From Bacteroidales bacterium (GTDB lineage Bacteria > Bacteroidota > Bacteroidia > Bacteroidales > Muribaculaceae), in NCBI GenBank assembly GCA_900770215.1, contig CAAGJW010000037.1:28322-92321 (forward strand): a stretch of 64,000 nt of DNA, written 5' to 3'. The notes under the pieces were generated by a model. It saw nothing but the letters and a program-made list of their open reading frames with translations, ran no database searches and had not been told where the DNA came from. Both the position numbers and the translations under genes were made by a program. Shown here piece after piece: positions 16,381-20,459 of this stretch. How positions within the stretch are numbered: the stretch's first letter is position 1; each line of letters begins with the position of its first letter.

Positions 16381-16421
16381 GGAGTGAAACTCACAGCACG
16401 CGAGGGCGAGAGTTTCACTCC
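16381..16421. terminator. hairpin between convergent asnC and znuC
   Basis: 12-bp inverted repeat GGAGTGAAACTC / GAGTTTCACTCC. Confidence 0.6.
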
Positions 16422-17152
16422 GTTGCTTTTAGGCCATGAGCCTGTGATGGTGGCACGGCATCGGTGCAGCGCGTGACCAGCATGTGATGGTGGCACGGGC
16501 ACTCATGCAGCGTGTGATCGACAATGAAGTGACGGTTGGCCATGGCCGAAACCACACTCACGTCGTGGCTCACCATGATGATGGTGGCTTGGCGCGAGAG
16601 CTCGCCGATGAGCTGGTAGAGGCGTTGCTCGTAGTACTGGTCGAGATAGCTGAGCGGCTCATCGAGCACAAGCACATCGGGCCGCCCAATGATGGCACGT
16701 CCCAGCAAGGCACGCTGCAGCTGCCCGCCCGAGAGCTCGCCCAGCGTGTGCTTGTGCAGCTGCTGCAAGCCCAGCTGTGCCAGAGTATCGGCCACAAGGG
16801 CACTCTCGGCTGCCGAGAGCCGGTGCAGCGGCCTCATCTTGAGACCCGAGGCCACCACCTCCTCGACGGTGACGGGGAAGCGGCTGTCGATCATGTTCTT
16901 CTGGGGCAAATAGCCAAATCTCAAATGCTGCACCTGGCAATCGCCGTCGTAGTACACCACACGGCCGCTGCTGGGCGCCACAAGCCGCAGCATCATGCGC
17001 ATCAAGGTGGTCTTGCCGCCGCCGTTGGGGCCAGTCACTATCACAAAGTCGCCACGATTCACAGTCACACTCACATGGCTCACCACAGCGAGGCGGCCAT
17101 AGTCCTTGCTCACATCCTGCAACTCGATAATCCTGGAAGTTGTTGCACTCAT
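16415..17152 (-). CDS. znuC: Zn/Mn ABC transporter ATP-binding protein
   Basis: Walker A GPNGGGKTT, GYLPQ, LSGGQLQR, VLDEP, His/Cys-rich tail. Confidence 0.85.
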   Translation of the reverse strand: MSATTSRIIELQDVSKDYGRLAVVSHVSVTVNRGDFVIVTGPNGGGKTTLMRMMLRLVAPSSGRVVYYDGDCQVQHLRFGYLPQKNMIDSRFPVTVEEVVASGLKMRPLHRLSAAESALVADTLAQLGLQQLHKHTLGELSGGQLQRALLGRAIIGRPDVLVLDEPLSYLDQYYEQRLYQLIGELSRQATIIMVSHDVSVVSAMANRHFIVDHTLHECPCHHHMLVTRCTDAVPPSQAHGLKATE

Positions 17153-17200
17153 AAGGGAAATTTAAATGATAAGGGGGAAAAACAACTCATTGCAGCACGC

Positions 17201-18076
17201 TCACCGGGCCGTTGCCGCCAGGGCACGGGCAATCCTGCTCATCTCGCCCGCCCAGTCGCCACTCATGGGATTGATCTCGACCGTCGTGCAGCCTATCTCC
17301 TTGTTGACAGCAGTGGCAGCACGGCTGTCGAACTGGCGCTGCACAAATATCACCCTTGCACCACTGTTGCGGGCAAGGTCGATGCGACGGGCAAGGTCGA
17401 GAGCCGAGGGCTCCTTGCCGTTGTCGAGAGACAACTGGTGCAGGCCGTAGTCGCGGGCAAAGTAGCTGAGCGTGGGGTGCCAGTCGATAAAGGTGGAGCC
17501 CTTCACGGGCGCAAGCTGTCGCGCAATGTGGCGGTCGAGCGTGTCGAGACTGGCGCTGAGCGCATTGTAATTTTTCACAAAATACCGCTTGTGCTTGGGA
17601 TAGAGCTTGATGAGGTCGAGCAGCATGTTGTGGGCAATCACCTTGGCATTTTTCACCGAGGTCCACACATGAGGGTCATACTCGCCATCGTCGGCGTCCT
17701 GCCCGCGCAACAGCCTGATGCCCGTGCTGGTGTCGAAAATGCTCAATTGCGGATTGTTGTTTCTCGCCTTGCCCACGATGGCCGACTCATAGCCAATGTT
17801 GCCAATCGTGAAATAGGCCTGCGCCCGCTCAAGCTTCATCATGTCGGACGTCTTGGGCTCGTAGTTCTCGGGATTGCTCTGCTCCTCGAGCAGGCACAAC
17901 ACCTCGACCTTGCTGCCGGCAATCTTCTCCAGCAAGTACCGCTGTGGGACGATGCTCACCACCACCCGAGGCTTCTCGCCTTGCTGCAGGCGGCAGCCCG
18001 CAGCCATCACTGCCACAATGGCCACTATAGCCATCGATGCCAGTATAGGAACAATATAGTCGACTCGTCGTTTCAT
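17201..18076 (-). CDS. znuA: Zn/Mn ABC transporter substrate-binding lipoprotein (TroA/ZnuA family)
   Basis: Lipobox AAGC, NPENYEP, DPHVWTS, HPTLSYFARDYGL, GKEPS. Confidence 0.85.
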   Translation of the reverse strand: MKRRVDYIVPILASMAIVAIVAVMAAGCRLQQGEKPRVVVSIVPQRYLLEKIAGSKVEVLCLLEEQSNPENYEPKTSDMMKLERAQAYFTIGNIGYESAIVGKARNNNPQLSIFDTSTGIRLLRGQDADDGEYDPHVWTSVKNAKVIAHNMLLDLIKLYPKHKRYFVKNYNALSASLDTLDRHIARQLAPVKGSTFIDWHPTLSYFARDYGLHQLSLDNGKEPSALDLARRIDLARNSGARVIFVQRQFDSRAATAVNKEIGCTTVEINPMSGDWAGEMSRIARALAATAR

Positions 18077-18168: not shown

Positions 18169-18176
18169 TAATTTTG
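18169..18176 (+). promoter_or_regulatory. -7 promoter element for the corA leader
   Basis: TAATTTTG matches Bacteroidetes TAnnTTTG, about 150 nt upstream of the corA ATG. Confidence 0.65.
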
Positions 18177-18205
18177 CATGTAATAATCAAAACGAAACAC
18201 AGAAT

Positions 18206-18259
18206 ATGGACGATAGCGTACCGCTAGATAGTAAACAACCTGTTGATATAGAGGCATAA
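18206..18259 (+). CDS. putative corA leader peptide MDDSVPLDSKQPVDIEA (17 aa)
   Basis: ATG 18206 to TAA 18257-18259 after an A-rich stretch; the stop codon lies inside the 5' arm of the leader hairpin. Confidence 0.55.
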   Translation: MDDSVPLDSKQPVDIEA

Positions 18260-18330
18260 ACCCACACGATGCATTGTGGCTTGTGCCTCGGCGATATTGA
18301 CGCAAACATAGGAGGAGGCATAACACAATG
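18251..18330 (+). promoter_or_regulatory. mutually exclusive hairpins controlling access to the corA start codon
   Basis: Segment 18272-18289 can pair with 18251-18266 or with 18315-18330 (includes ATG); GAGGCATAA occurs at both 18251 and 18315. Confidence 0.7.
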
Positions 18331-19251
18331 ACAGAATTCTTACTATTTGGAAAGAATTTCACAAAATGCGACCAGTGGAAACCTGGCTGCTGGGTGAACA
18401 TTTCCTGCCCTGACCAGGGCGAGCTCGATTACTTGCGCAATCTCGACGTGCCCGAGTCGTTTATCACCGATATCAGCGATGCCGATGAGCGACCGCGTAC
18501 CGAAATCGACGGCGACTGGCTGCTCACCGTGCTGCGAGTGCCCCGGCAGACGAGCGATGACGACATCCCGTTCAACACCATCCCCGTGGGCGTGATCACC
18601 AATGGCGACCTGGTGATTGTGCTGTGCTACTACAAGAACATCGTGGTCAACGACTTCATCAAGTACAACAGCGCCAAGAACATCGAGATACCCAACAAGT
18701 TGGTACTCATCATGCGCCTCATCCTGTCGTCGGCGGTATGGTTCCTTAAATACTTGAAAATCATAAACATCGACATCAACAATGCCGAGGACGGTCTCGA
18801 GCAGAGCATGCACAACGAGGACCTGCTGCGACTGCGCAACCTGCAGAAGAGCCTGGTATACTTCAACACCTCGATAAGGGGCAACATGACCCTGCTGGTG
18901 CGACTGCGCACGCTGTTTCAGAACTCGGGCCTCATCGACAAGGACATGATCGAAGATGTCGACATCGAGCTGCAGCAGGCACTCAACACCGTGAAGGTGT
19001 ACAGCGACATCCTGAGCGGCACCATGGATGCGTTTGCCTCGATCATCTCCAACAACTTGAACGTGATCATGAAACGCATGACCAGCACCTCGATCATACT
19101 GATGCTGCCCACATTCATTGCCTCGCTCTACGGCATGAACGTGGCCCTGCCCTTTGAGCACCGCGTGTGGGCCTTCACCTTCATCGCCGTGCTATGCGTC
19201 TTGTTCTCGGTGGGAGCATTCTTCCTGTTCCGCCACATCAAGTGGTTCTAA
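18328..19251 (+). CDS. corA: magnesium transporter CorA family
   Basis: DADERPR, FASIISNNLNVIMKRMT, IASLYGMNV (GMN signature), two C-terminal TM helices. Confidence 0.95.
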   Translation: MTEFLLFGKNFTKCDQWKPGCWVNISCPDQGELDYLRNLDVPESFITDISDADERPRTEIDGDWLLTVLRVPRQTSDDDIPFNTIPVGVITNGDLVIVLCYYKNIVVNDFIKYNSAKNIEIPNKLVLIMRLILSSAVWFLKYLKIINIDINNAEDGLEQSMHNEDLLRLRNLQKSLVYFNTSIRGNMTLLVRLRTLFQNSGLIDKDMIEDVDIELQQALNTVKVYSDILSGTMDAFASIISNNLNVIMKRMTSTSIILMLPTFIASLYGMNVALPFEHRVWAFTFIAVLCVLFSVGAFFLFRHIKWF

Positions 19252-20459
19252 GCCTTTTCACATAGCAGCAGCACTGCACTGCCATCGGCAAGGGTGGTGG
19301 CAAAGAGGTAGTCGGTGCCGCCGTCACCCACCTTGAGACGCTTTTTCAACGCCTCGGGTGTGAGCTTGAAGTTGCGCGTGGCGATATTGAGCTGCGCACA
19401 CCGCTTGCCCAGCAGTTTCAGTTGCCGGCCGTTGAAAGGCATCACTTCCTTGACGACAAACTTGCGGCCAGGAAAACCGGGTACAAGCCTGTCGCCTGCA
19501 TAGAGATGAGAATTGGGGGCCAGCTGTGCAGTGCCGGTGGCTGCCTGCACGGCGGCATGGCAGCCCAGCTTCATCACGCTGGCATGAGGCTCATAGAGAT
19601 AACCGCCGGCTACGGGCACGCCAGGGCGCAACACCTCGTCGACGGTGTCGCCGGTAGTTGTCGTGAAGTCGTGCCAATCGCCGTCGTAGTTGAGCGCATG
19701 CAGCGCAATGCCGGCTGGATCGCTACCGAAATCGAGTACAAACAGCAGCTCCTTGCACTCGTTTTTCACACTCACAGCCCACACCTGTGCCAGCGGCGCG
19801 CCCAAGTCGGCTATCGACTGCGAGAGGTCGAGCATGGGTGAGGCCTTGATCACAAGGCGCCGGCAATGGCGCGCGATGAGCGGCATGATGGCGAGCACAT
19901 CGGGCTGGCACTGGACCAAGCCATAGCGCCTGCGTCCGTCCTGGCCGCGACGGGCCGGGTCGATAAACATGGCATCGTATTGCTCTTGCAGCGGCATCGC
20001 CTCGAGCAGCTGCACCGAGTCGGCCTGCACCACCTTCACCTTGGGGTTGAGAAAGCCAAAGTTGTACTGCCCCACCGCAGCAATCTCGGGGTCGAGCTCC
20101 ACGGCAGTGAGTGAACGAGCGCGCCGGGCAATGTAGTAGTCGTCGACACCCAGGCCCATGGTCAGGTCGAGCACCGTGTGGGTGGTGTCGAAGAGCGAGG
20201 CGTGCAGCTTGGCCACCTCCTGGTGGGTGCACTGCTCGGCACTTATGGCTTTGGGAAACAGAAAGCGGTCGTGAGCCAGCAGCTCGGGTATCTTGCGACG
20301 CAGCTTGCGGCGGCACTCCACCTGCAACACGGCAAAGCGCTTGTCGAAGCTCAGCCCTGGCTCCTGCTTGAGCATCAACTTCAAGGCATCGTCGCCAGCA
20401 TGGCGGGCGATATAGCTCCACATCGACTCGTCGACCCTATGTCCTGCAATTTCGTCCAT
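19248..20459 (-). CDS. class I SAM-dependent methyltransferase with THUMP-like C-terminal domain
   Basis: SAEQCT, VLDLTMGLGVD, FIDPARR, IKASPMLD, LYEPHASVMK. Confidence 0.85.
   Translation of the reverse strand: MDEIAGHRVDESMWSYIARHAGDDALKLMLKQEPGLSFDKRFAVLQVECRRKLRRKIPELLAHDRFLFPKAISAEQCTHQEVAKLHASLFDTTHTVLDLTMGLGVDDYYIARRARSLTAVELDPEIAAVGQYNFGFLNPKVKVVQADSVQLLEAMPLQEQYDAMFIDPARRGQDGRRRYGLVQCQPDVLAIMPLIARHCRRLVIKASPMLDLSQSIADLGAPLAQVWAVSVKNECKELLFVLDFGSDPAGIALHALNYDGDWHDFTTTTGDTVDEVLRPGVPVAGGYLYEPHASVMKLGCHAAVQAATGTAQLAPNSHLYAGDRLVPGFPGRKFVVKEVMPFNGRQLKLLGKRCAQLNIATRNFKLTPEALKKRLKVGDGGTDYLFATTLADGSAVLLLCEKA

Follow-up and report, generated by a model that had tools for sequence, protein, structure and literature searches.

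The corA gene of the analysed DNA is preceded by a conserved leader, through which the ribosome probably switches translation of the Mg2+ importer gene behind it in response to Mg2+, as judged from sequence comparison, folding models and analogy. The leader carries a promoter element, a short upstream ORF (uORF) with an acidic N-terminus and three segments (A, B and C), of which B has two possible partners, A and C. With sufficient Mg2+, translation would proceed beyond the acidic Met-Asp-Asp/Glu start into segment A. The A:B helix would then be melted, and the freed B would pair with C, so that the SD-like motif and the corA start would be covered (off). At low Mg2+, translation would break off or stall on the first acidic codons (intrinsic ribosome destabilization, IRD), A:B would form first during transcription, and the corA start would stay open (on).

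The leader of corA in the window

The window is the whole stretch of DNA analysed (64 kb). The parts of the leader are listed below, with the basis of each assignment in brackets.

18169..18176, + strand: Bacteroidetes −7 promoter element TAATTTTG (sequence)
18182..18205, + strand: uORF initiation region, A-rich and G-poor, no SD (sequence)
18206..18259, + strand: leader uORF of 17 codons, MDDSVPLDSKQPVDIEA and stop (sequence and relatives)
18206..18223, + strand: conserved uORF head M-D-D-S-V-P, likely sensor (codon patterns among leaders)
18251..18266, + strand: segment A (anti-anti-SD), overlapping the last two uORF codons and the stop (folding; A:B covariation in homologues)
18272..18289, + strand: segment B (anti-SD, CCTC core), partner of either A or C (folding)
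18311..18318, + strand: SD-like GGAGGAGG, 9 nt 5′ of the corA ATG (sequence; GGAG counts)
18315..18330, + strand: segment C, the 3′ half of the SD and the corA ATG, hidden if paired to B (folding; B:C pairing in homologues)
18328..19251, + strand: corA, 307 aa, with the GMN signature (YGMN motif) (Pfam PF01544)

The coordinates of the −7 element, the uORF, the three segments and the corA ATG were given earlier by a reading of the sequence only, and all of them agree with the sequence. The element at 18169..18176 is called a −7 element on the basis of TAnnTTTG, which we take to be the Bacteroidetes consensus. The uORF product contains five acidic residues and two Pro residues. According to the folding calculations, A:B consists of 14 bp (−18.0 kcal/mol), and B:C consists of 16 bp with a 2-nt bulge (−19.3 kcal/mol). 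The 9-mer GAGGCATAA is found exactly twice in the window, at 18251 and 18315 (0.32 expected). Its duplication in A and C, noticed in the sequence-only reading, is exact in the window, but it is a local solution and not a conserved feature. By itself, the 161-nt leader shows no unusual stability (z = −1.6), and it is the homologues that speak against chance.

The product of corA belongs to the CorA family (PF01544, E = 7e-48); its TIGR00383 score is under the equivalog cut-off. No other CorA was found in the source genome (96% complete), nor was an MgtE or an MgtA over the cut-off; one Nramp gene is present.

Conservation of the uORF

Loci of corA homologues (127) were gathered within the genus and the order, with one named record in addition; a protein-seeded contig scan gave one locus only. 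Six loci were left out (three weak matches, one that lacks its 5′ end and two in which the upstream DNA is cut short). An M[DE][DE] start is present within 300 nt upstream of corA in 83 of the remaining 121 loci, compared with a mean of 2.7 and a maximum of 7 in 100 dinucleotide shuffles and two on the reverse strand; related genomes are non-independent samples in these counts. When single variants are counted, 85 leaders have an acidic-start uORF, and 81 are left after removal of near-duplicates, three automatic picks having been removed and three uORFs added by hand. The leader is absent from 36 of the 121 orthologues. Among 16 close orthologues of the same genus, 13 have an MDD uORF, two have an M-G-D start, and one has a short leader without a uORF. 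Two close relatives (L130 and L131) with an M-G-D start and a uORF of 27 codons represent a natural Asp2 variant. In metagenomes, with the best 80 of 430 kept, the uORF is present in 78 of 79 scorable loci, which comprise 24 distinct leaders. Outside Bacteroidales, an MDD uORF precedes corA at 7 of 28 loci, namely at L298 and at six loci from further orders of this class (L288, L292, L295, L296, L297 and L299).

Codon 2 was a selection criterion, and its conservation is therefore circular. Codon 3 was not selected on, and it encodes Asp in 59, Glu in 17 and another residue in 5 of the 81 uORFs (Asp/Glu in 76/81), with four codons used. Past codon 6, only 6.5% of the residues are acidic. The synonymous and Asp/Glu changes at codon 3 are signs of constraint at the peptide level, and selection on the peptide is favoured by Ser4, for which some relatives use AGY and others TCN codons. 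At codon 2, GAC is used in 72 of the 80 Asp cases, and an NCG codon is present at position 5 or 6 in 59/81 uORFs. According to this codon bias, part of the constraint may lie at the RNA or tRNA level.

The uORFs range from 8 to 34 codons in length. Pro is present at positions 4–7 in 55/81, and 24/81 have no Pro anywhere. As the uORF of a 94%-identical orthologue reads MDDSVPLDSINLLI, comparison of the sequences indicates that the tail of the window uORF is a derived frameshift. The second Pro and the last two acidic residues of the window uORF are absent from this orthologue, and the stop codon of the relatives is a TAG aligned to 18249–18251. Thus, of the uORF in the sequence-only reading, the conserved M-D-D/E head and the short, often Pro-containing stretch stand, whereas the 17-mer itself does not.

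In view of the many uORFs without Pro, the wide range of lengths and the frameshift of the tail among close relatives, the acidic N-terminus, acting through drop-off, is a more likely sensor than Pro or the length of 17 codons. In the same switch, the sensor might instead be slow decoding or stalling at codons 4–6, caused by Pro and NCG codons and dependent on EF-P or tRNA supply, which comes near to what the sequence-only reading proposed. The frequencies of Pro and of NCG codons given above agree with this, and Pro codons matter in mgtL (excerpts of PMC11552253). We nevertheless consider stalling at codons 4–6 unlikely, as uORFs without Pro are common, the Pro codons vary (CCG/CCA/CCT/CCC) in close relatives and Asp/Glu at codon 3 is better conserved. 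The earlier analogy with the Pro-rich leader MgtL holds for the kind of leader but not for Pro stalling, and destabilization by acidic residues (EPDP of MgtL, and MgtQ) is the better analogy.

The source genome contains four further uORFs with a promoter and an M[DE][DE] start besides that of corA. These were rejected, as neither a convincing hairpin/SD switch nor an Mg2+ importer was found behind them.

Promoter and transcription start

The sequence TnnnTTTG is located 18–32 nt 5′ of the uORF ATG in 69/81 leaders and 43 nt in one, and it was not found in 11. Positions −19 to −1 of the uORF are A-rich and G-poor across the 81 leaders. In Bacteroides thetaiotaomicron, dRNA-seq assigned to BT_3414 (Mg2+/Co2+ transporter) a primary start in three growth phases with a UTR of 133 nt, and no secondary or internal start is listed (PMC7366714). 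The mapped start is located 5 nt 3′ of TACTTTTG, and the BT_3414 promoter is carried by 11 of the fetched loci. In L200, the start is 133 nt 5′ of the corA ATG and 24 nt 5′ of the uORF MDDSNPRTCTYSIN. A start 3′ of the uORF had been named earlier as evidence against the switch; in B. thetaiotaomicron, the whole leader lies inside the BT_3414 mRNA. By analogy, transcription in the window would start at about 18181. The UTRs of B. thetaiotaomicron mgtA (42 nt) and of its other corA (29–50 nt) (PMC7366714) are too short for the leader. The expected coordinates of the BT_3414 uORF were not found in the searchable supplements of PMC7366714.

Two predicted competing hairpins

The cost of opening the corA start was calculated for the 73 short leaders, which have at most 100 nt between the uORF stop and the corA start. 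With an early ribosome on the first codons, the median opening cost is 5.4 kcal/mol, compared with 11.7 kcal/mol when the A region is shuffled. The difference is in this direction in 70/73 leaders, and in 51 of them at most one of 25 shuffles is as low. With a ribosome at the uORF stop, the median cost is 13.0 kcal/mol, compared with 6.6 kcal/mol when the B region is shuffled; 72/73 leaders are in this direction, 59 of them at the level of at most one of 25 shuffles. In 56 of the 61 leaders with GGAG, the two states share one B strand, which is paired with the SD in one of them and with an upstream A arm in the other. Thus, a mutually exclusive A:B/B:C switch that acts on the corA start, in the direction given by the sequence-only reading, holds in the folding models and against the shuffled controls.

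In the 61 GGAG leaders, helix A starts between −15 and +9 relative to the uORF stop, where a ribosome on the uORF can reach it. The positions do not support a tight link between the stop codon and helix A, the standard deviation of the position being 6.8 nt relative to the stop and 7.1 nt relative to the start. As the position of helix A is equally variable relative to both, the only rule is that the ORF must reach A. In the stepwise ribosome model of the window, the opening cost is 3–4 kcal/mol without a ribosome or with codons 1–11 in the A site, 5 kcal/mol at codon 12, and 10–14 kcal/mol from codon 13 to the stop. In this model, the ribosome need not reach the uORF stop, as had been proposed, and reaching about codon 13 suffices. 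The contrast is weaker in the B. thetaiotaomicron-type leader, with 9–11 kcal/mol for an early ribosome and 17 kcal/mol at the stop. In this leader, B:C is the equilibrium fold even with an early ribosome, and co-transcriptional folding is therefore needed there.

Covariation was analysed in aligned groups of leaders. The 15 MDDY-type leaders show strong covariation of A:B, which is 88% paired (slid controls, 47–58%), and 8 of 9 pairs have two-sided changes (0/500 shuffles). The covariation of A:B is modest in the 16 Bacteroides-type leaders (79% paired, 6/13) and in the 17 MDEGP-type leaders (94% paired, 3/10). B:C is 95% paired in the MDEGP-type leaders, with a covariation score reached by 0/500 shuffles. 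As the aligned structures were derived from the sequences themselves, they have an advantage over the slid controls, and the related leaders are not independent. Consensus folding of the alignment A2 gave the B:C core alone, with no covariation. Together with the uORF counts and the shuffled controls, both pairings proposed in the sequence-only reading are found to recur in orthologous leaders.

The RNA itself might bind Mg2+ as a riboswitch, the uORF being incidental or serving only for tuning. In its favour, the two hairpins of the window are only about 1.3 kcal/mol apart, and elsewhere these four importer classes are under the control of Mg2+ riboswitches (excerpts of PMC4072509). This explanation is, however, highly improbable: no conserved aptamer-like core is seen, and the loops and helices vary freely whereas the ATG-Asp-Asp/Glu head is kept. 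A search of Rfam gave chance-level matches only for the window leader and none at the gathering score on 14 homologous loci, so that no family matches the leader. The covariance model of the M-box aptamer (RF00380) has no match in the window leader, the homologous loci or the source genome.

On comparison of the duplexes with shuffles, a fourth segment in the uORF head, as in mgtQ, was rejected for leaders of the types MDDS and MDDY and for the type of the window. In the window, the duplex of segments 1 and 2 has an energy of −7.7, which does not surpass that of shuffles, and the model predicts an open start in the free leader. In the MD[DE][GVD]P subgroup (L081, L089, L090, L107, L108, L109, L114 and L125, and the mgtE loci L237 and L239), codons 3–5 can pair with the 3′ part of segment A (69% paired, 15/500), and residue 4 seems to covary with this part. 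The alignment is suggestive of an mgtQ-like four-segment switch in this subgroup.

Eight long leaders (L075, L077, L083, L084, L087, L096, L097 and L110) have 149–245 nt between the uORF stop and corA. They contain a second ORF of about 29–39 codons, not conserved in sequence, which starts at or near the second hairpin and ends 4–75 nt 5′ of corA, or overlaps corA in L077. These leaders are possibly two-tier cascades that operate by translational coupling or protection from Rho.

The second ORF of the long leaders, placed under the switch, also fits an output mainly at the level of transcription, in which blocked translation of corA would lead to Rho-dependent termination or mRNA decay. Enterobacterial corL and mgtL act through Rho (excerpts of PMC11552253). 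In the window and most short leaders, however, the B:C helix covers the start region of the importer itself, and no U-tract is found 3′ of either hairpin in the window. An output mainly through transcription is thus quite unlikely, and control of translation of the importer is preferred.

The SD-like motif in an SD-poor lineage

GGAG is present within 22 nt of the corA start in 61/73 short leaders, compared with 8/36 loci without the uORF. In the source genome, GGAG precedes 3.5% of 1979 crudely called ORFs, which equals the coding background. The 3′ end of 16S was not found in the source assembly. Strong SDs are present in 1.7% of the genes of the Bacteroidia group, where the anti-SD is reported to be occluded and the ribosomes to be SD-blind (excerpts of PMC7797042). 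Outside Bacteroidales, 6 of the 7 leaders with a uORF have no GGAG before corA, and the SD is therefore not required for the design. The GGAGG of the leader may be structural, or it may be a real SD. As an SD-like motif at canonical spacing, it provides a natural test of when the anti-SD of Bacteroidia is used.

Other importer genes and the probable Mg2+ signal

The unit of promoter, uORF and hairpins is also present before mgtE (4 of 30 fetched loci) and mgtA (1 of 11); most mgtE and mgtA genes are without the leader. A sequence model (R1), trained on the MDEGP subgroup, was run over 150 genomes and gave 12 matches: eight training leaders, one corA, one mgtE, one operon of MgtE_N-CBS and Nramp genes, and one weak match (L278, E = 4e-4) that was rejected as a leader as it has no uORF. 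R1 does not find the window leader, which indicates that the family is too divergent for one sequence profile. The operon (L279:354-2894) encodes a PRC-barrel/MgtE_N/CBS protein of 425 aa and an Nramp-family protein of 416 aa, and it is likely an NrmT-type Mg2+ importer with a soluble MgtE-like partner, as judged from the sequences.

In the leaders before genes other than corA with a correctly placed start, the opening cost with an early ribosome is lower than that at the stop in 6/6 cases, and the A-shuffle control is clear in 5/6; L237 is outside this count, as its start codon was misplaced in the calculation. A further candidate (L246, MDEDK before mgtE) was dropped, as its uORF overlaps the mgtE start. 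Upstream of mgtA in L228, a GC-rich and hairpin-rich leader was observed, with no uORF and no Rfam match at the gathering score.

Every clear instance of the leader seen here precedes a CorA, MgtE, MgtA or MgtE_N/Nramp gene. A module common to unrelated Mg2+ importers is the best evidence on the signal, and by association it points to Mg2+. The leader might otherwise sense general translation stress or another cation (Zn, Co or polyamines), as a ribosome-based sensor integrates anything that destabilizes the 70S ribosome. A zinc-type ABC binding-protein gene is divergent from corA in the window, and the CorA and Nramp families carry several cations. We regard a signal other than Mg2+ as very unlikely, since the clear instances are confined to the four importer types, the CorA has the GMN motif and the neighbouring genes differ between loci.

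If the Mg2+ switch is true, the leader singles out those MgtE and Nramp paralogues that are likely to import Mg2+. A more far-reaching reading, which we hold as doubtful, is that Bacteroidales sense Mg2+ mainly through this leader, which the ribosome would gate at two steps and which would have moved as a cassette between CorA, MgtE, MgtA and Nramp-type genes. In the first gate, drop-off at Met-Asp-Asp/Glu would open the start site. In the second gate, the SD would be read only by ribosomes whose anti-SD is freed from bS21/bS18/bS6 under Mg2+ starvation. Mg2+ importers would then be a non-ribosomal, SD-dependent class of genes in an SD-blind lineage.

Comparison with known systems

The leader has the features of the MgtL and MgtQ kind, i.e. 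a short uORF 5′ of an importer gene, acidic first codons and mutually exclusive predicted stems. By analogy, it likely works like MgtL and MgtQ; the likeness is one of design. The following descriptions of the enterobacterial and other known systems are based on excerpts of the cited papers.

In Escherichia coli MgtL, Glu2 and Asp4 are required for drop-off at EPDP, and EttA counteracts this drop-off (PMC11282234). MgtL of mgtA (E. coli and Salmonella) resembles the leader in its N-terminal motif of acidic residues and Pro, and low Mg2+ leads to ribosome drop-off and expression of the importer, as proposed here (PMC11282234, PMC11552253). It is modulated by bL31 and EttA, the genes of which are both present in the source genome. 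MgtL differs in its output by Rho-dependent termination and belongs to another phylum, and the head of the Bacteroidales leader is M-D-D/E-x-P/H.

In Salmonella mgtQ, located before mgtB, Asp2 and Glu5 control a stem that hides the RBS of mgtB (PMC8092293). Like the leader, mgtQ is a short ORF with Asp2 and alternative stem-loops, the inhibitory stem of which hides the RBS of an Mg2+ importer. The output is translational, and efficient translation of the uORF represses, as is predicted here. In contrast, mgtQ is intergenic in a PhoP-driven operon and has four segments, so that knockout of its start lowers mgtB (PMC8092293). In the window, a constitutive-type Bacteroidetes promoter precedes the leader, which forms a 5′ UTR, has three segments and is predicted to be on when ribosome-free. 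The Bacteroidales leader also serves four importer types in an SD-poor lineage.

The corL uORF in the corA leader of E. coli and Salmonella responds to intracellular Mg2+, and its translation is inverse to the expression of corA (PMC11552253). It differs from the present leader in being Rho-dependent, with a UUG start and few acidic residues (PMC11552253). Reports of the 'corA motif' are confined to Gammaproteobacteria and metagenomes (PMC6429828). The M-box precedes the same set of genes (corA, mgtE, mgtA and Nramp-type importers), but it consists of a large aptamer that binds a ligand, in most cases together with an intrinsic terminator (PMC4072509).

The sequence-only reading knew of no earlier description in Bacteroidales, and the searches bear this out: none was found in Rfam or, for Bacteroidota, in the full-text literature, with most subscription journals outside the search. 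The excerpts of PMC4072509, PMC13000453, PMC4833913 and bioRxiv 2020.03.31.018887 contain nothing on the leader, and a term search of PMC13209247 gave nothing on it. The lists of candidate microbiome RNAs in the supplements of bioRxiv 2020.03.31.018887 could hold it as an unnamed motif. With the same coverage of the literature, no description of the control of Mg2+ uptake in Bacteroides and its relatives, which are dominant anaerobes of gut and rumen, was found. The leader is a concrete and compact candidate mechanism, with a mapped transcript in a model species (BT_3414). If true, Mg2+ sensing by ribosome destabilization, so far shown in enterobacteria, would be used in a distant phylum and span four importer types.

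Genomic context and an inverted uORF

In the window, genes for a ZnuA-like binding protein and a ZnuC-like ATPase (16415–18076, − strand) are divergent from corA and share the intergenic region with its promoter. A methyltransferase-like gene (19248–20459, − strand) is convergent and overlaps the corA stop by 4 nt, which leaves no room for a terminator. Most corA genes of the same genus (L006–L022, L024 and L025; CorA about 40% identical) and that of L002 belong to a distant clade, and have a promoter 30–50 nt 5′ of the ATG and no uORF. The clade of the window CorA is present in 15 of 132 other genomes of the genus and is nearer to Bacteroides-type proteins. This position hints at replacement or transfer. 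In L005, the uORF MDDYHARYNF upstream of corA is inverted between perfect inverted repeats and adjoins a scaffold gap. The inverted uORF is most likely an assembly artefact, an invertible segment being the alternative.
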